Assembly: GCA_963674735.2 (NCBI GenBank)
Contig: CAXXQS010000002.1
Location: forward strand, 2,240,001 to 2,304,000
Length of the DNA stretch: 64,000 bases
Reading direction: 5' to 3'
From: Myxococcota bacterium
GTDB taxonomy: Bacteria; Myxococcota_A; SURF-8
The notes under the pieces were generated by a model. That model worked only from the letters and a program-made list of their open reading frames with translations. It had not been told where the DNA came from and did not search any database. The translations under genes were made by a program, and so were the position numbers. This document shows, piece by piece, positions 4,952-64,000 of the stretch (position 1 is its first letter; every line of letters begins with the position of its first letter).

Positions 4952-6322
4952 TTAATTACATCCGCCTCCGCCCGCGCCTTTGGCTTTTACGGTGACGATC
5001 TTGGTTTCCGGCGGGGTGGCCCCGGCGAAGACGAAGCGGGGTGGGGGTGTTTGGCTTTGACCGCCCAGATAGGCGAGGGCTGTTTGAGTGAAAGCGGTGG
5101 CCGGTTTCGGCATGAAAGAGGGCAGTGGCCAGGTGCTGGGGTCGGACAGAATGTCGCGTCGCCAGGCGTTTAACCCGCCGTCGAGGGCCAACGCGTTTTT
5201 TCCGCGTCGCCGCAAAGCGTTTACAAGGGCGAGACTGGTTTGGCCACTGTCGTCCACGAATACCAGCGGCTTGCTTTTGGGCAGATCCGCCGTCAATTTT
5301 CCAAGTCGTATGAGCGCTTCCGCGAGGAAAGCGTCGCCATCGGAGTCTCCGGCTTCGAGATATACAGACAAGGGCAAAACGAGGTCACGCTTGTCCGCAT
5401 TTACCGGGCGCAGGTCGAACAGTGCCAAGTCTTTGGGTTTTCCGGCCTGACGGTTGTTTCCTTCGGCCACCAGCCAACCGGCCAGGGTGTAGCTGTCCAC
5501 CAGCGGTGCTTCAGCCGGATCGAGGGCCGTGGCAGCGCTTTTAGGTACATGGTTGGCCAATACCGGGTGCGGGGTCGCAGATTCGGTGACAATGACCACT
5601 ACGACTCCCACAAAGGCTAAAGCCGGAGCGGCCGTATTCCAGAAGTTGCGCGGCGCTTTGACGACCGGCTTGGCGGGAGTGCTGGAATCGCTCTTTTCTG
5701 CCTTCAGTTCGGCCACCGTTTTGAGTGCGAAACGCCGTTCCAGATACGGGACGGCCGCGAAGCCGCCCAGCGCCATCAAGACCACTCCGAGCGCCCAGGG
5801 CCAGGCCGGACCGTCTCCGTAAAGTGTCATCTTGGCGGCATCGGCCGGGGCGAAAAAGTTGATAAACCAGGCTTGCTCGAACAAACCGTCGAATAAAAGT
5901 GCAAAGGCGTAGATCCCCAACACGATACCGAACAAGAAGGCCGGGGCGTCCCACCGTCCGCGTGCCAGTGCGACCACCGCCGTTCCGGGGCAGAAACCGC
6001 CGACGTAAAAACCGACGCCGAAGACGAGTCCGCCAAGCAAGATCGGCCAAAAGAAGGTGGCCTCGTACTGCACCAGTGACAGATTGAGGATACCTACGCC
6101 ATCGAGAATCAACGCGCCCAGCATGGCTGTCACGACGGCCGTGAACATCACACGGAACACGCGAAAATCGCGCAAGATAAAGACGGATGTCAGATTTTTA
6201 GAGGTGCCGAAGCCTGCGCGTTCCAGGAAGAACCCGAATAAGACGCCCAAGCCGAGCGAGATCATCAAATAGGCGATTTCGCTGAAGCCGTCCAGGGGTG
6301 CGAGAGGGAAGGGAGCATTCAT
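4952..6322 (-). CDS. YeeE/YedE (PmpB-like) sulfur transporter fused to a rhodanese-like domain with a C-terminal GGGGC tail
   Basis: GVLFGFFLERAGF and GFCPGT YeeE motifs; ALALDGGLNAW rhodanese signature with Asp (VDDSG) at the catalytic Cys position; ATGA overlap with the upstream stop and GGAGG RBS. Confidence 0.8.
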   Translation of the reverse strand: MNAPFPLAPLDGFSEIAYLMISLGLGVLFGFFLERAGFGTSKNLTSVFILRDFRVFRVMFTAVVTAMLGALILDGVGILNLSLVQYEATFFWPILLGGLVFGVGFYVGGFCPGTAVVALARGRWDAPAFLFGIVLGIYAFALLFDGLFEQAWFINFFAPADAAKMTLYGDGPAWPWALGVVLMALGGFAAVPYLERRFALKTVAELKAEKSDSSTPAKPVVKAPRNFWNTAAPALAFVGVVVVIVTESATPHPVLANHVPKSAATALDPAEAPLVDSYTLAGWLVAEGNNRQAGKPKDLALFDLRPVNADKRDLVLPLSVYLEAGDSDGDAFLAEALIRLGKLTADLPKSKPLVFVDDSGQTSLALVNALRRRGKNALALDGGLNAWRRDILSDPSTWPLPSFMPKPATAFTQTALAYLGGQSQTPPPRFVFAGATPPETKIVTVKAKGAGGGGCN

Positions 6323-57874: not shown

Positions 57875-60800
57875 TCAGGCTTTGTGTTTCGCCGCGAAAG
57901 CCAGTTCGTCGCGCAACGCGAATTTGGCTTCGGCCTTGGGCGGGAAACGATCCACGATCTCGGCCTGCACCGGCAACGGCGTGCGCGTCTTCTCGCCCAT
58001 ATCGAGCGGCATGACCAAGCCCTTGCGGCGATTTTCGGGCACCATGGGAAAGACCGCGATGCGTCCGGGTTTGGCCGCTTTAGATAAAACATAAGCCAAG
58101 CCGACCTGGCTGCCGTCGGGTAGCACCACCGCCGAGGTGACGTGCCCGATGAAGTCGCCGCGATTGCCCGCCACCTTGTCGCCGGGTTTGATGGGCTTCG
58201 TACCTCTTTCCGTAATCGTGAAACGCACGGTTTCCTTGTCGCGCGTCGCTTCCTTGGCTAATAACGCGCGCTTGCCGATGAAGAAGGGCTTGTGGAATTT
58301 TACGTAGGAGGGGAAGCCCGCGCCGCCCGGTGTCATGCCGTAGGGGCCTTCCAACTCGTGCCCGTAAAGCGGCAGACCCGCCTCGGTGCGGGTGGAATCG
58401 CGCGCCGCCAGACCCGCCGGAACCAGCTCGAAAGGCCGCCCGGCTTCGACGATCGTCGCCCACAGTTCCGGGGCGCGTTCGGGATGCACGAACAGTTCGA
58501 AGCCGATGCGCTCGCCGGTGTAGCCGGTACGCGAAATGACCACCGGCAGTCCGGCCAAGGTAAACTCGCCGCAGTCGGTGCGCTTAAGGGTCATAAAGGC
58601 GGAAAGCTGCTCGGGTGCGATCAGGCTGCGTAGCGCGTCGCCCGACCGCGGGCCCTGCAGCGCCAGTACCACGCGGCAGTCCTCGCCGTTTACCGGATCT
58701 TTCAGGTTGCGCAAAACGGTGGGGCGCACGATGCGCCGCTGGGGCACGTCGCGGTCGCATAAAACATCGCCGGTATTCACGGCGTTCAACCAGGCCCAGT
58801 CTTTGTCTTCGTTCGACGCGTTCACCACCAGCAGGTAGCGCTCGGCCGCAAGACGATAAACCATGATGTCGTCGAGAACCTGCGCGTCGGGATCGAGCAG
58901 GTAGGAGTAGTAGCTCTGGCCGTCGCCGATCCAGCGCGCGTAGTTGGTGCTCGCGAAATCGAGAAAAGCCGTAGCGTTCGGTCCGGAGACTTCAAAGCAA
59001 CCCATATGGCTGATATCGAATAAGGCGCAGGCTTCACGCACCGCCTTGTGCTCCTCCAGCGTCGAGGTGTACCACACGGGCATTTCCCAGCCGGCGAAGG
59101 GCACCATCTTTTTGGAAATCGCCGTGTGCGTCTCGTAAAGCGAGGTGCGTTTGAGCGGTGGATTCTCGGGCTCCGTCCAAACGAATTCGGGAAGCGCGGC
59201 CGCCGGGGGCAAGGCTTCCCGCAGCAGGCGTTGACCGACGAAATAGGGTTTGTGCATGGCGAACCAGGCGGTGTCGCCCGCCTCGATCAGGGATGCGACC
59301 GTCAGGGGATGCTGCGGAAGACCCGCTTCGATCACCGCTTCGCGGCGCGTGGCCAGGGCACAGAGTGTTGCCCCGAGTTTGATCAGCGCAATCTGAACGG
59401 CTTCGGCGCGCGCGGCGGGAACCAACAGGGTGGCGAGGGATTCGCCGCCCGCCGCCAATACGATGCCGTCTTTACCGGTGCATTCATGGGCCCATGCCGT
59501 TGCCTGTGCGCCCACCAGATCGAAGCGGTGCAGGCCCTCTCCGAGCGGCGCATCCGCCGCCGCCAGGTCTTCGACCACCACTGGGCCTTCCACTTTGGCG
59601 GTCAGGTCGTCCGGTTCGAAAAGCAGGTAGCCGTCGGCGTGCCCGCGCATCCAGGCCAGCACGTGGTGCGCCCGTTCGGGATGCGGGATAACGAGAAAGC
59701 CGTTGTGGCGCGGGTTTTCGTGAAGCGGCAGGCGCGCAAGCAGGACGTCGTCGAGGACATCGCCCTGGCCATCGAGCATCAGCGTGCGCAGCGTTTCACC
59801 CGCGGCGAGCGCGGACGCGTCGCCGGTGATCAGGTTCTGGATGTGCGCCTCGACGCGCGCGCCGGTGACGCGGATGACTCCGCCGGGAACCGCGAACAGG
59901 GCCGCGCCGTTCTGCATGGCGGCGGTGGTGTCCTGCTCGGCCGTCTGTTCCGTGGGGCAACGGGGCGGCAGCGGTTTGAGCAGGCTGTAATGCGGATAGC
60001 CCGAGGAACGCGGAGCCTCGCCCGCCAGTTCGCCCGCCAGATCGGCCACGTCGCGCTTGGCCGCTTCGAAAGCGGCGAATTCCACCTTACCGCGCGGCAG
60101 CGTGCCCAGAAGACCGTCGAAATGGAAAGGATGGATACCCTTTATGATGCGCGCCACCAGCTCGCCCAGGCGGTCGATCTGTTCGTCAGTGATGCCGCGC
60201 TGGGTGATCCAGGGGGTGCCCATGCGAACGCCGGTGGCCATGGCGGTGAGGTCGTCGCCGGGCAGGGTGTTTTTGTTGGCGACGATGCCGCACAGTTCCA
60301 GCAGGCGCACGGCCATTTCGCCGCGTAGCATTTCGTCGGTGACGCGCGGCAGCTTTTTGAGATCGATCAGGAACAGGTGTGTGTCGGTGCCGCCGTAGGC
60401 CAGCGAGAGCCCGTTGGCTTGAAGCGCCGCACACAGGCGTTGCGCGTTGGCCACGATGCGATGCTGCAGGCGTTTGAATTCGTCGCTCTGGGCCAGCTTC
60501 AAGGCCACCGCCAGAGCGGTGATGGTGTTGACGTGCGGTCCGCCCTGCTCGCCGGGGAAAACCGCCAGGTCGATCATTTGGGCCTTTTCCTCGTCGGTGG
60601 TGAGGATGATCGCGCCGCGCGGACCCATGAGTGTTTTGTGGGTCGTAAAGGTGGTGACATCGGCAATACCCACCGGGTTGGGATAGGCCCCGGCTGACGC
60701 CATTCCCGCCGGATGGGCGATATCGGCCATCAGCAAGGCTCCGCAGGCGTCGGCGATCTGGCGCAGACGCGGCCAGTCGGGTGCCCAAGGATAGGACGTG

Positions 60801-61456
60801 AAACCCGCGATGATCAGGTTGGGTCGATTTTCGAGCGCCAGCTTTTCCATTCGGTCGTAATCGAGACGCCCCGTGGCCGGACTGATGCCGTAGGGGACGA
60901 CCTTGTAGCGTTTGCCCGACATATGGAATTCGGAGCCGTGGCTCAGGTGCCCGCCCTGCATGAGGTCCATGCCCATGATGGTGTCGCCCGGCTCTAAAAA
61001 GGCCTCGAAGACCGCCAGATTGGCGGCCGCGCCGGAGAGCGCCTGCACGTTGGCGAAGATGCGTTCGCTGGCGGCATTCGGATTGGCGAAGAGGTCGGCG
61101 GCGCGCCGACGGCAGAGGGCCTCGACCTGGTTGGCGTAGTCGGTTCCTTTATAGAAGCGCCGATCGGCGTAGCGTCGATAATGCACAAGCTGGGCAGGCA
61201 GGTCGGCCAGATCCGCTTCAGGCAGGTAGGTCGCCATGGAGGACGGATAGCCTTCGGCGTAGAGATTGCCGTAAACCGATTCCATACTGCGCCGGACCGT
61301 CGGATGGCACAGGCTTTCGGATGGAATCATGATCAGACGGCGTACCTGTCGCTCTTCCTCCAGTTCGATCAGGTCGTGAATCACGGGATCGCAGTCACGC
61401 AGCTCGCCATCGAAGGGTGCCACGCCCACGGTTTTGGGAATCTCGCGCTCGGCCAT
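57875..61456 (-). CDS. glyA-gcvT: Serine hydroxymethyltransferase fused to a degenerate GcvT domain and a full GcvT aminomethyltransferase
   Basis: YAEGYP, GGHLSHG, TTHKTLMGPRG (PLP Lys), FPGEQGGP; later FAGWEMPVWY, FDISHMG, SRTGYTGE, GLAARDSTRTEAG. Confidence 0.93.
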   Translation of the reverse strand: MAEREIPKTVGVAPFDGELRDCDPVIHDLIELEEERQVRRLIMIPSESLCHPTVRRSMESVYGNLYAEGYPSSMATYLPEADLADLPAQLVHYRRYADRRFYKGTDYANQVEALCRRRAADLFANPNAASERIFANVQALSGAAANLAVFEAFLEPGDTIMGMDLMQGGHLSHGSEFHMSGKRYKVVPYGISPATGRLDYDRMEKLALENRPNLIIAGFTSYPWAPDWPRLRQIADACGALLMADIAHPAGMASAGAYPNPVGIADVTTFTTHKTLMGPRGAIILTTDEEKAQMIDLAVFPGEQGGPHVNTITALAVALKLAQSDEFKRLQHRIVANAQRLCAALQANGLSLAYGGTDTHLFLIDLKKLPRVTDEMLRGEMAVRLLELCGIVANKNTLPGDDLTAMATGVRMGTPWITQRGITDEQIDRLGELVARIIKGIHPFHFDGLLGTLPRGKVEFAAFEAAKRDVADLAGELAGEAPRSSGYPHYSLLKPLPPRCPTEQTAEQDTTAAMQNGAALFAVPGGVIRVTGARVEAHIQNLITGDASALAAGETLRTLMLDGQGDVLDDVLLARLPLHENPRHNGFLVIPHPERAHHVLAWMRGHADGYLLFEPDDLTAKVEGPVVVEDLAAADAPLGEGLHRFDLVGAQATAWAHECTGKDGIVLAAGGESLATLLVPAARAEAVQIALIKLGATLCALATRREAVIEAGLPQHPLTVASLIEAGDTAWFAMHKPYFVGQRLLREALPPAAALPEFVWTEPENPPLKRTSLYETHTAISKKMVPFAGWEMPVWYTSTLEEHKAVREACALFDISHMGCFEVSGPNATAFLDFASTNYARWIGDGQSYYSYLLDPDAQVLDDIMVYRLAAERYLLVVNASNEDKDWAWLNAVNTGDVLCDRDVPQRRIVRPTVLRNLKDPVNGEDCRVVLALQGPRSGDALRSLIAPEQLSAFMTLKRTDCGEFTLAGLPVVISRTGYTGERIGFELFVHPERAPELWATIVEAGRPFELVPAGLAARDSTRTEAGLPLYGHELEGPYGMTPGGAGFPSYVKFHKPFFIGKRALLAKEATRDKETVRFTITERGTKPIKPGDKVAGNRGDFIGHVTSAVVLPDGSQVGLAYVLSKAAKPGRIAVFPMVPENRRKGLVMPLDMGEKTRTPLPVQAEIVDRFPPKAEAKFALRDELAFAAKHKA

Positions 61457-62006
61457 CGCTATCTCCTTTCCAAAACATCCACAGATGCCGAAACGATCGG
61501 CTCAATTCGCCGCCCATCATACCGCTTTTGCCCGCGTTGTAAAGGAACTTCCAAGGCTTTGCCGCGAAGCGTTTTCGGACTCGGAAAGCGGAGCAAGACC
61601 CGTTTCCGGCGCGGCATCAAACCTAGCATTAACCGGTAAATCATAAGTGATAATACGTATGTTTGAAATCGTGTTACGAAAAAGAAAGAGGTAGCAACTA
61701 CTTGATTTTATGGAATTAACCCTTGCAGCTCTTTTATTTCGATGATAGGCTGAGGTCCGTTTGGGCGCTGGTAGCAGTTTGAGTATGTTACCATTACTAT
61801 GCTGATACATCACTATGCAAGTTAAACGCGGATCTATTTGGGGGGTCAAATCGCGAGTAAGGCGGAATGCCGCGCTCTCTGTTTGTGCCTAACTGCGAAT
61901 GGACCGGTGTGTCCGTCTGCTAGACACACCGTGGATTGATGGACGTGTGTCAAGTATCGAACTTTGTTTGACGGATCTGCGAACTCATTTTCCGGAGGAA
62001 ATGCGC

Positions 62007-62219
62007 ATGGCAGAAAAAATGGAAACCAAAAAGAAGTTTGATGGTGAAAACGTGGAAATTCTTGCCGAGACCTATGAAGACGGCACTCCGCCGAAAGCCG
62101 ACCGCTGGCGGGGGAAATTGAAGAATCGGGAGCAGATGCTCAAATATATCAAAACGGGCCAGCGTTATTGGTACGACGAAGATTCGTACGGAAGCGAGAA
62201 GCGCAAAACGCCGGCCTGA
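62007..62219 (+). CDS. Small hypothetical protein heading the acs/cdh operon
   Basis: GGAGGA RBS; 70-aa charged ORF with host-like codons directly upstream of acsD. Confidence 0.7.
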   Translation: MAEKMETKKKFDGENVEILAETYEDGTPPKADRWRGKLKNREQMLKYIKTGQRYWYDEDSYGSEKRKTPA

Positions 62220-62286: not shown

Positions 62287-63762
62287 ATGACGGTTGAGAC
62301 CCCGAAGCAAAGCTATAGCGGAAGCATTCGGGCGATTCCCATCCCGGGCGACAAAGGATTTACGCTCGGTGGTGAGACGACCATGCCCTACTACCTATTC
62401 GAAGGGGAGATGCCCAATCCCCCGAAAATTGCGGTAGAGGTCAATGACGTCGAACCGGGGGAATGGGCCCAGGAACTGAAAGATCAGTGGGGCGACGTAC
62501 TCAAAGACCCGGTGAAATGGGCCAAAATGGCCCAGGATAAACTGGGTGCCGATCTGATCCATCTCGAACTGGTCGGGACCGATCCCAATGGACAGGATCT
62601 GGGGGCCGATCATGCCGTGGACGTGGTGAAGAAGGTGGCGGCCGCCATCGATATTCCCCTGGTCGTCTGGGGCTCGTCGAACCAAGAAAAGGATAAAGAT
62701 ATCCTGCGCGCGGTGGCTGAGGCCGTTACCGATCGGCAACTGATGATCGGACCGGTGCAGGAAGACAATTATAAACAGGTGGGCGCGGGTATTCTGGCGT
62801 ACAAACACATCGCCATCCCCAACAGCCCCATCGACATCAACCTGGCCAAGCAGCTCAACATTCTGCTCGGCAATCTGGGCCTGCCCGCCGACAAGATTTT
62901 GGTCGATCCCACCACGGGTGGCTTGGGATACGGCATGGAGTATAGCTACTCCGTCATGGAGCGCGCGCGTCTGGCGGCCCTGGTGCAGGAAGATGAAAAG
63001 CTGCAGTATCCGCTTTATTGCAACCTGGGTAAGGAAGTGTGGAAGGTCAAGGAAAGCAAGCTGAGTGCCGAGGAAGCTCCCGAACTGGGCGACCCGACCA
63101 AGCGCGGCGTGCTGATGGAACTGCTCACCGCGACCTCGGTTCTGGTGGCCGGCGCCAACGTGTTGGTGTTGCGTCATCCGGAGTCGGTGAAATACGTTCG
63201 CGAGCTGATCGACGATCTGACCAACGCCAACGAAAAACCGGGAATGCAGAAACCGGCAGCCATCGACCGCTCGGTGAAACTCGAAAAACCGAAAGCGGCC
63301 GCCAAACCGGCGGCTAAACCGGCGGCTAAACCGGCGGCCAAGCCTGCCGCCAAGCCTGCGCCCAAGGCAGACGACGCGGCCAAGAAGGCGGCCGAGGCGG
63401 AAGCCAAAGCCAAAGCGGAGGCGGCGGCCAAAGCCAAGGCGGAAGCGGAAGCCAAAGCGGATGCGGAAGCCAAAGCCAAAGCGGAGGCGGAAGCCAAGGC
63501 CAAGACCGACGTGGTTCCTGCGGCCGCTCCGGCCCCGGTTGCCACTGTGGTCGAAAGCGCCGACACCGAAACTCATATCGTCAAGACGTTGGATGCCGGT
63601 GACGACGACGGAAGCGTCACCATCGTCATTCACGTCGGTTCATCTGGAGAACAACAACAACAGGGCTCGTCCAGCGATGTGAACCAGTTGCAAGCGATGA
63701 TCAAACAGCAACAGGCCGAAATCGCCGAGCTCCGCGAAATCGTGGCGAGGAGGAAATCGTGA
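62287..63762 (+). CDS. acsD: Corrinoid Fe-S protein small subunit (ACDS delta) with a long Ala/Lys-rich C-terminal extension
   Basis: LGGE...Y.FEGEMPNPP, SPIDINLAKQLN, DPTTGGLGYGMEYSYSVMER, LRHP. Confidence 0.92.
   Translation: MTVETPKQSYSGSIRAIPIPGDKGFTLGGETTMPYYLFEGEMPNPPKIAVEVNDVEPGEWAQELKDQWGDVLKDPVKWAKMAQDKLGADLIHLELVGTDPNGQDLGADHAVDVVKKVAAAIDIPLVVWGSSNQEKDKDILRAVAEAVTDRQLMIGPVQEDNYKQVGAGILAYKHIAIPNSPIDINLAKQLNILLGNLGLPADKILVDPTTGGLGYGMEYSYSVMERARLAALVQEDEKLQYPLYCNLGKEVWKVKESKLSAEEAPELGDPTKRGVLMELLTATSVLVAGANVLVLRHPESVKYVRELIDDLTNANEKPGMQKPAAIDRSVKLEKPKAAAKPAAKPAAKPAAKPAAKPAPKADDAAKKAAEAEAKAKAEAAAKAKAEAEAKADAEAKAKAEAEAKAKTDVVPAAAPAPVATVVESADTETHIVKTLDAGDDDGSVTIVIHVGSSGEQQQQGSSSDVNQLQAMIKQQQAEIAELREIVARRKS
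63295..63504 (+). repeat. In-frame low-complexity tandem repeats (AAKP; AEAKAK)
   Basis: 12-bp units GCNAARCCNGCN, about 5 copies, then degenerate GCGGAAGCCAAAGCC units within acsD. Confidence 0.85.
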
Positions 63763-64000
63763 AAATTGAAATTAAAGTCGGATCCGATAAAGGTCAAGCG
63801 GCGGGAGCGTCTTCGGATGTGGCCGTGCTCAAGCAAATTTTCGAAACCAATCAAAAAGAAATCGCCGAGCTGAAGAAGATGCTCGCCGGTGGGCAGCCCG
63901 TCGTGGCGGCGGCTCCCCCGACCGTGGCGAAAGCGGCTCCCAAGCCGAAGAAAAACGTCATCAAAAGCATCGATCCGGCGACGCTGAAAACCATCGACAT
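63759..64000 (+). CDS. Partial gene, probably anaerobic CO dehydrogenase catalytic subunit (AcsA/CooS); truncated by the window edge
   Basis: GTGA overlap with the acsD stop, AGGAGG RBS, open to the window end; KSIDPAT resembles CooS N-termini; operon context. Confidence 0.55.
   Translation, partial: MKIEIKVGSDKGQAAGASSDVAVLKQIFETNQKEIAELKKMLAGGQPVVAAAPPTVAKAAPKPKKNVIKSIDPATLKTID

Follow-up and report, generated by a model that had tools for sequence, protein, structure and literature searches.

Matched terminal peptides on AcsD and carbon monoxide dehydrogenase in a small Myxococcota clade: a putative docking pair

In textbook accounts of the bacterial Wood–Ljungdahl pathway, the corrinoid iron–sulfur protein (CFeSP) is a free shuttle that makes transient contact with the complex of carbon monoxide dehydrogenase and acetyl-CoA synthase (CODH/ACS). 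Docking domains of polyketide synthases and non-ribosomal peptide synthetases (PKS/NRPS), which are helices or β-hairpins on flexible linkers, couple a short C-terminal element of one protein to an N-terminal element of the product of the following gene and impose proximity and the choice of partner. The Ala/Pro-rich swinging arms of the E2 components of 2-oxo acid dehydrogenases carry lipoate and link the domains of one chain. Here we analyse a 64,000-nt stretch of a Myxococcota genome (the window; G000:C2:2240001-2304000), in which the small CFeSP subunit, AcsD, and the CODH encoded directly after it carry copies of one short peptide, at the C-terminus of the former and at the N-terminus of the latter. 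We refer to these copies as the D-tag and the S-tag, respectively. Elements at corresponding places have been reported from the archaeal acetyl-CoA decarbonylase/synthase (ACDS), for which a 2026 preprint (PMC13370988) reports that CdhD has a coiled coil within its disordered terminal region, serving as a scaffold, and proposes the disordered termini of CODH (CdhA residues 1-43) and of ACS as tethers.

The first of the two genes is an open reading frame (ORF) of 491 aa (62287..63762, + strand) that matches the CdhD/AcsD Pfam family PF03599 over residues 23-256 (E 1.3e-37; 129.9 bits versus a curated cut-off of 24.8). Its core is 60-74% identical to AcsD proteins of ~314 aa, whose C-terminus falls where this core ends. 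The second ORF, on the same strand, begins with a GTG at 63759, overlaps the acsD stop codon (TGA, 63760-63762) by 4 nt (GTGA) and exits the window. We extended the contig beyond the window to read the downstream genes. Read to its end there, the second ORF spans 711 aa and encodes a Ni-CO dehydrogenase (CooS/AcsA) that matches the Prismane/CODH family PF03063 (E 3.4e-176; 587.3 bits; profile positions 1-512 of 513, protein residues 108-674), as the original prediction, drawn from the letters of the window, had guessed. acsD is co-encoded with AcsC, ACS and CODH, which is the family context of the small CFeSP subunit.

The same prediction held that one peptide is appended to both proteins, and the alignments bear this out. 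The AcsD tail and the first 80 residues of CODH align by BLASTP with 19 identities and 28 positives in 42 positions and 1 gap (E 6e-8), and the window holds exactly two occurrences of the 14-mer GAAATCGCCGAGCT, which the original prediction had noted (63718 and 63858), with no match in any of 100 shuffles. The two copies lie strictly head to tail, 143 nt apart. A hidden Markov model (HMM) of the two copies, run against the 5.26-Mb genome that holds the window (96,810 stop-to-stop frames in all), found these copies on AcsD and CODH (E 8.6e-29 and 6.7e-28) and nothing else, the next frame scoring E 0.78. At E <=0.1, Pfam gave only CdhD in the AcsD protein and nothing in the first 80 residues of CODH; the PKS/NRPS docking-domain families are among those that neither sequence matched at this threshold. 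A profile search of the Protein Data Bank with the tags returned coiled-coil segments only (GCN4, COMP, coronin and viral heptad repeats) and no homologue of the tags.

Both copies have the strand-and-helix anatomy that had been predicted for them, as judged from the heptad pattern of their sequences and from low-confidence AlphaFold2 (AF2) elements, and both are joined to their enzymes by the Ala/Pro/Lys linkers that had been noticed (Table 1). The whole AcsD arm (residues 313-443) is 131 residues long and is 35% Ala, 18% Lys and 9% Pro; residues 44-70 of CooS are 22% Ala, 19% Pro and 19% Lys. The single-chain AF2 models of AcsD and CODH were built from 5- and 6-row alignments, have mean pLDDT values of 56.3 and 50.2, respectively, and give hints of secondary structure only. 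In these models residues 313-362 of AcsD have no secondary structure (pLDDT <50) and are predicted to be disordered. Residues 363-404 form one long helix (pLDDT 53-70), which is a possible rigid spacer, and every tagged relative has a like stretch. A strand at residues 429-436, in a segment that can be aligned in three relatives (G004, G006 and G009), pairs as a hairpin with the strand at 443-450, with low pLDDT.

The helix of the tags keeps a constant core. Numbered from the first invariant Leu and compared over ten tags from five genomes, offsets 0, 4, 7, 11, 14 and 18 are occupied in 10 out of 10 tags by L, I/F/V/L, Q (N once), I/L, L and V/L/I, respectively, and offset 3 is likewise hydrophobic. 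The alignment thus points to a tag helix of roughly three heptads, with core positions at 3-4 spacing and a conserved polar Gln at its centre. Some differences between the D-tag and the S-tag are likewise kept from genome to genome: both faces of the AcsD strand are hydrophobic and an extra strand comes before it, whereas in the CODH strand K/E alternate with I/V.

We conclude that the CODH gene starts at the tag, where the original prediction had placed it, because a Shine–Dalgarno sequence precedes the tag in all five tagged genomes, the tag is conserved in frame (dN/dS 0.13; see below) and the internal Met81 is not conserved. The Shine–Dalgarno sequence is AGGAGG or AAGGAGA, 5-7 nt before the start codon of the tag, which is ATG in two of the five genomes and GTG in three. 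Met81 has no Shine–Dalgarno sequence and is not conserved in the relatives P0002, P0024 and P0027. In four genomes the Shine–Dalgarno sequence lies inside the final Arg-Arg codons of acsD, so that the last AcsD codons (RRKS here; AGG AGG or AGG AGA in relatives) double as the ribosome-binding site of the CODH gene, and the conservation at the end of the D-tag may be partly at the level of RNA. We considered whether the GTGA overlap might be a site of programmed frameshifting or fusion, and dropped the idea: in G003 the two genes are separate, with a TAA stop, a 14-nt spacer, and a Shine–Dalgarno sequence and ATG of the CODH gene's own.

The order to which the window belongs is represented by ten species genomes, seven of which have acsD. 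Both tags and both linkers are present in five of these seven, three of one family (G000, G003 and G004) and two of another (G006 and G009). In the other two, G001 and G008, acsD and cooS are adjacent, yet neither tag and neither linker is present. The tag profile gives exactly two matches per genome in G004, G006 and G009. The divergent pair of G003 was missed by the first profile and was seen on reading the locus, which indicates a limited sensitivity for distant forms. In G009 (L021 ~5440..5480) a frameshift in the A/E/K linker splits acsD into a frame of 420 aa and a tag-bearing frame of 105 aa, the tag frame itself being intact; the break may be genuine or an artefact of assembling repetitive sequence.

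Searches at larger scale led back to the same two proteins. Of 401 genomes sampled from the phylum, only 11 have an AcsD-like gene; strong matches were confined to the four close genomes, two apiece, and a further 11 genomes had a single weak match (E 9e-5 to 6e-3) that covered the helix only. A profile of ten tags had 20 matches at E <=0.001 among 1.84 billion representative proteins; one covered the whole profile and is an N-terminal fragment of a G004-like CODH, and five others that we inspected are unrelated repetitive or coiled-coil proteins. We also searched 5.8 billion clusters for longer proteins that carry the tag, scoring the 7,999 candidates that shared most words, and all eight matches were C-termini of AcsD (PF03599), N-termini of CODH (PF03063) or their fragments. 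A search with full-length AcsD added three tagged metagenome proteins (P0029, P0030 and P0031). A locus search with four CODH tags, which used an M-initial pattern and left GTG-start tags unmatched, found one locus, the G004 contig, and a protein atlas search with the AcsD tail gave no usable match. Within the searches made, the tag appears to be restricted to AcsD and CODH of one small clade. Homologues in that clade do carry it, and the two proteins gain or lose it jointly.

Both tags have diverged under constraint. Between G006 and G009 the D-tag has 12 synonymous and 6 non-synonymous differences (dS 0.59, dN 0.063, ratio 0.11), and the S-tag 12 and 8 (dS 0.69, dN 0.091, ratio 0.13); by these ratios both are under purifying selection. 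Within a genome the two copies share features that are specific to their lineage: SSDV and EIAEL in G000, SEL in G004, and LP and KLTE in G003; in addition, the D-tag of P0031 and the S-tag of G003 have a run of eight residues in common. The summed same-genome identity was the highest of the 24 possible pairings of four lineages, and was reached by 3 of 120 pairings when five lineages were used; with BLOSUM scores the corresponding figures were 3 of 24 and 8 of 120. The likeness of the copies is kept at the level of protein, because their DNA has little in common: within a genome the nucleotide identity is 43-52%, and the same codon is used at between 3 of 14 and 9 of 20 of the identical residues. 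Recent gene conversion as the cause of the within-genome likeness was considered, and the codon comparison does not support it.

To place the tags in the history of AcsD we use a maximum-likelihood tree of 61 AcsD cores, which comprised all 16 long proteins and the best-scoring 45 of 105 short ones, the other 60 short proteins being omitted. All tagged AcsD proteins fall into a single clade (support 99/93), which also takes in two short proteins as part of an unresolved polytomy and has a short protein as its sister. P0028, P0031 and P0032 (the last truncated) were assigned to the tagged group by eye. These placements fit one gain of the tags followed by one or two losses. The pair itself probably arose by tandem duplication of an oligomerising peptide across the gene boundary, an origin that the head-to-tail copies, 143 nt apart, would fit.

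Long tails are also found on other AcsD proteins. Fifteen of the 120 listed AcsD homologues are at least 400 aa long: seven are tagged, seven form a second group (P0070, P0086, P0091, P0096, P0097, P0109 and P0136; loci L050-L055; one named Dissulfuribacterales by its source), and one is odd (P0112). Members of the second group are ~500-520 aa long and form a clade of their own in the core tree (100/97). Their barrel is followed by an insert, by an A/P/K and then a long A/E/K stretch, and by a basic C-terminal helix of a distinct kind. This arm plan of A/P/K stretch, long A/E/K helix and short terminal helix is that of the tagged proteins, whereas the terminal peptide lacks a strand, has a basic, HRR-type end and has no twin on CODH. 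The N-terminus of the adjacent CODH is ordinary where it could be read (L050, L051 and L054), and in L053 acsB directly follows acsD; no twin of the tail peptide was found in the five metagenome loci recognised by their tails and L053, nor in the genome of the window. A different arrangement is seen in G331, another Myxococcota genome (L060 1480..3861, - strand), where the part of L060 that was scanned encodes ACS (PF03598, PF19436) and an AcsD domain in one chain, joined by ~140 Pro/Ala-rich residues. G331 and G272 (L061) have similarly long open frames, of 1167 and 1208 aa, the domains having been read in G331. As is proposed for the window's proteins, the fusion ties the small corrinoid subunit to CODH/ACS by a long disordered linker; unlike them, it is covalent and to ACS, not CODH, and its AcsD core is only 40-41% identical. 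Taken together, the sequences indicate that long AcsD leashes arose more than once, and that the CODH twin is peculiar to the Myxococcota clade.

We consider it somewhat more probable than not that the D-tag and the S-tag dock with each other and so keep CFeSP on a leash to CODH/ACS, which would make them a bacterial analogue of the coiled-coil scaffold proposed for archaeal ACDS. The reading is based on the exclusive placement of the tags on these two proteins, their joint gain and loss, the purifying selection on both, the lineage features that they share without homogenisation of their DNA, the heptad core with its Gln, and the long arms. The conserved specialisation of the two copies and the start of the CODH gene at the tag also speak for it, and the archaeal ACDS coiled coil and the single ACS–AcsD chain of G331 are precedents for its logic. 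Of the functions put forward in the original prediction, tethering of CFeSP to CODH/ACS is the best supported; recruitment to a compartment found no backing in a genome 94.4% complete, either in shell or encapsulin genes (PF00936, PF04454) or in the number of tag copies, which is two.

Several observations weigh against docking of one tag by the other. The co-variation is weak; it comes from four or five lineages, G003 and G000 being its main source, and the same-genome identity in G004, G006 and G009 (30-33%) is not above the values between genomes. The tag family comes from only a few genomes, all of uncultured organisms. The AF2 models are of low confidence, and the strand of the CODH tag, taken alone, is not predicted as a strand. 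Complex prediction for the 68-aa AcsD tail and the 50-aa CODH N-terminus, run twice on 5-row alignments and without controls, scored 0.18 both times, the mark being 0.32, and counts neither for nor against docking. The second group of AcsD proteins has a like arm and a terminal helix while its CODH has no twin, which implies that an AcsD tail can be useful without a matching CODH tag. Finally, a third partner shared by the two tags would yield equal co-variation.

Such a third partner is the alternative that survives best, although we hold it to be unlikely: both tags would bind one site on a further component, either a scaffold or a surface of AcsB, AcsC or AcsE, and CFeSP and CODH would be co-recruited indirectly. 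A common receptor would indeed produce similar peptides that co-vary within a lineage, and the tail helix of the second AcsD group, having no CODH twin, can evidently use another partner. However, the HMM search of the genome found no third tag-bearing protein, AcsB and AcsC have equal lengths in tagged and untagged genomes, and the small conserved ORF before acsD, which untagged genomes have as well, is not specific to the tags. Moreover, the conserved differences between the D-tag and the S-tag, in the polarity of the strand and in the extra hairpin strand, would be unexpected if both fitted one identical site.

It is also conceivable, with a clearly lower probability, that each tag homo-oligomerises without cross-association, the D-tag clustering CFeSP and the S-tag stabilising or multimerising CODH. 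The tag helix does resemble a generic coiled coil, and archaeal CdhD is reported to self-assemble through such a helix (PMC13370988). Independent oligomerisation of this kind sits poorly with the gain or loss of two tags and two linkers together across seven genomes, with the lineage-specific features common to both copies and with their strictly head-to-tail encoding; besides, two coiled coils of near-identical design should cross-associate unless this were selected against.

Tags that act as encapsulation or targeting peptides, directing their carriers to a protein compartment or a cellular site, seem very improbable. Encapsulation peptides of bacterial microcompartments (BMC) generally take the form of an amphipathic helix that is attached to a protein terminus by a flexible linker, and the tags have this form, with their heptads, predicted helices and A/P/K linkers; like BMC encapsulation peptides and encapsulin cargo peptides, they also occur on more than one enzyme. 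The genome of the window, which is 94.4% complete, has however no match to BMC shell proteins (PF00936; E. coli and Synechococcus controls were positive) and none to encapsulin (PF04454; positive in three control genomes), and two proteins alone carry the tag, the other pathway enzymes of the operon being without it. Least credible of all is a functionless relic of a tandem duplication spanning the gene boundary, which the head-to-tail copies 143 nt apart would fit, but which is at odds with the retention of both copies in five genomes of two families at a dS of 0.6-0.7 and a dN/dS of ~0.1, with a heptad core invariant over ten tags, and with protein similarity that persists while the nucleotide identity between copies is near background.

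If the D-tag and the S-tag do dock with each other, the geometry can be sketched. Buried polar residues in the core of GCN4-type coiled coils set register and orientation, and for this reason pairing of the tag helices in register, with the conserved Gln buried centrally, would be favoured. The strands of the tags could join into a small sheet, to which AcsD would add its extra hairpin strand in four of the five lineages. A stoichiometry of 1:1 is possible; so is a larger mixed bundle, given that CODH is dimeric and that the tags are of one design. With the D-tag on an arm of 131 residues and the S-tag on one of ~30, CFeSP would be permanently leashed to CODH/ACS and could swing freely between the methyltransferase and the A-cluster of ACS, at a raised local concentration and a fixed stoichiometry. 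The 4-nt overlap of stop and start codons implies translational coupling; the S-tag would be made straight after the D-tag from one mRNA, and the two would emerge in turn from neighbouring ribosomes, an order that, going by work on operon-encoded complexes, would favour assembly in cis. Duplication of an oligomerising peptide in tandem across the acsD/cooS boundary would have produced matched tags. A bolder version, which we regard as speculative and rather doubtful, is that this Myxococcota lineage independently built a bacterial counterpart of the ACDS megacomplex, in which the duplicated tags form a mixed, multi-chain hub that holds several CFeSP on long rod-and-string arms around CODH/ACS and assembles co-translationally from one translationally coupled mRNA.

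The arrangement compares with the known systems as follows. PKS/NRPS docking domains have the same gene-order arrangement, a C-terminal element followed by an N-terminal one on flexible linkers; the two elements are usually dissimilar there and are paralogous copies here, and the enzymes are unrelated. The AcsD arm resembles those of E2 in that a long Ala/Pro/Lys-rich arm would let an attached cofactor carrier reach several active sites, but the AcsD arm has a non-covalent tag at its end, and the swinging unit would be a whole corrinoid protein. Archaeal ACDS serves the same pathway, and according to the preprint (PMC13370988) it too has its elements on the small corrinoid subunit and on the CODH N-terminus, with a short Leu-zipper-type helix in a disordered extension that is proposed to hold the corrinoid protein, CODH and ACS together yet mobile. 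By the same source the CdhD helix is N-terminal and forms homo-hexamers or homo-octamers, whereas the Myxococcota helix is C-terminal and has a twin on CODH; the Myxococcota tag also includes a β-strand, AcsD here starts directly with the conserved core and has no archaeal-type N-terminal extension, and the host complex is of the bacterial type. Twin tags on AcsD and CODH have not previously been described for bacteria, and our literature search, which covered sources other than subscription journals, found no paper on a bacterial AcsD extension or on a tether between CFeSP and CODH.

The bacterial type of the host complex is seen from the genes that follow CODH. AcsB has three domains, including the A1 domain (PF18537, with PF03598 and PF19436), and is followed by AcsC (PF04060 and PF03599), a pterin-binding methyltransferase (acsE), a DUF3786 protein and a CooC-like ATPase. 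Directly upstream of acsD lies an ORF of 106 codons (61899..62219, + strand) without a Pfam match, whose conserved part is at ~62007..62216. Its last ~70 residues are 45-64% identical to those of ORFs at the same position in six relatives, tagged and untagged, and the ORF probably encodes a small, conserved acs-operon protein. As a tag-specific partner we rejected it, because the conserved part also adjoins acsD in the untagged G001 and G008. Further upstream, divergent from the acs operon, an ORF of 1193 aa (57875..61456, - strand) encodes serine hydroxymethyltransferase (PF00464, E 4.9e-113) fused to the glycine-cleavage T-protein/aminomethyltransferase (PF01571, E 5e-87; PF08669); these enzymes of C1-folate metabolism thus adjoin Wood–Ljungdahl genes. 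The positions of the features of acsD and of the CODH gene are collected in Table 1.

Table 1. Features of the acsD/CODH junction, in window coordinates
Feature	Position	Strand	Basis
acsD core, TIM-barrel CFeSP small subunit, residues 1-312	62287..63222	+	PF03599; AF2 helix ends at 312
AcsD linker part 1, residues 313-362, Ala/Lys/Pro-rich, five AAKP repeats	63223..63372	+	32% A, 22% K, 18% P
AcsD linker part 2, residues 363-404, only A/E/K/D	63373..63498	+	52% A, 24% K, 19% E
AcsD linker part 3, residues 405-428, Ala/Val/Pro/Thr-rich spacer	63499..63570	+	composition; AF2 disordered
Extra strand and acidic turn before the D-tag, residues 429-443, AcsD only	63571..63615	+	AF2, alignment
D-tag, last 48 AcsD residues (444-491): strand (VTIVIHVG), polar loop, ~29-residue helix (AF2 helix 462-490)	63616..63759	+	
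Shine–Dalgarno sequence AGGAGG of the CODH gene, within Arg-Arg codons of acsD, 5 nt before GTG	63748..63753	+	sequence
S-tag, first 48 CODH residues: amphipathic strand (MKIEIKVG), loop, helix (AF2 helix 17-43)	63759..63902	+	
CODH linker (Ala/Pro/Lys/Val-rich, ~residues 44-70, ~30 long) and start of the conserved CODH N-terminal segment	63903..64000	+	

If the tags do hold the two proteins together, bacteria would have a tether or docking module in an enzyme system in which they were thought to lack one. A natural tether on a bacterial CFeSP would blur the divide between the bacterial and archaeal systems and would represent a second, convergent way to keep the methyl carrier near the A-cluster. 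It would also provide a small, portable pair of tags for assembling CODH/ACS with its methyl donor, which could aid structural work on the elusive CFeSP–ACS state and the engineering of CO2-fixing modules. More generally, a self-associating peptide copied over a gene boundary would be a simple, one-step route to a new hetero-complex.

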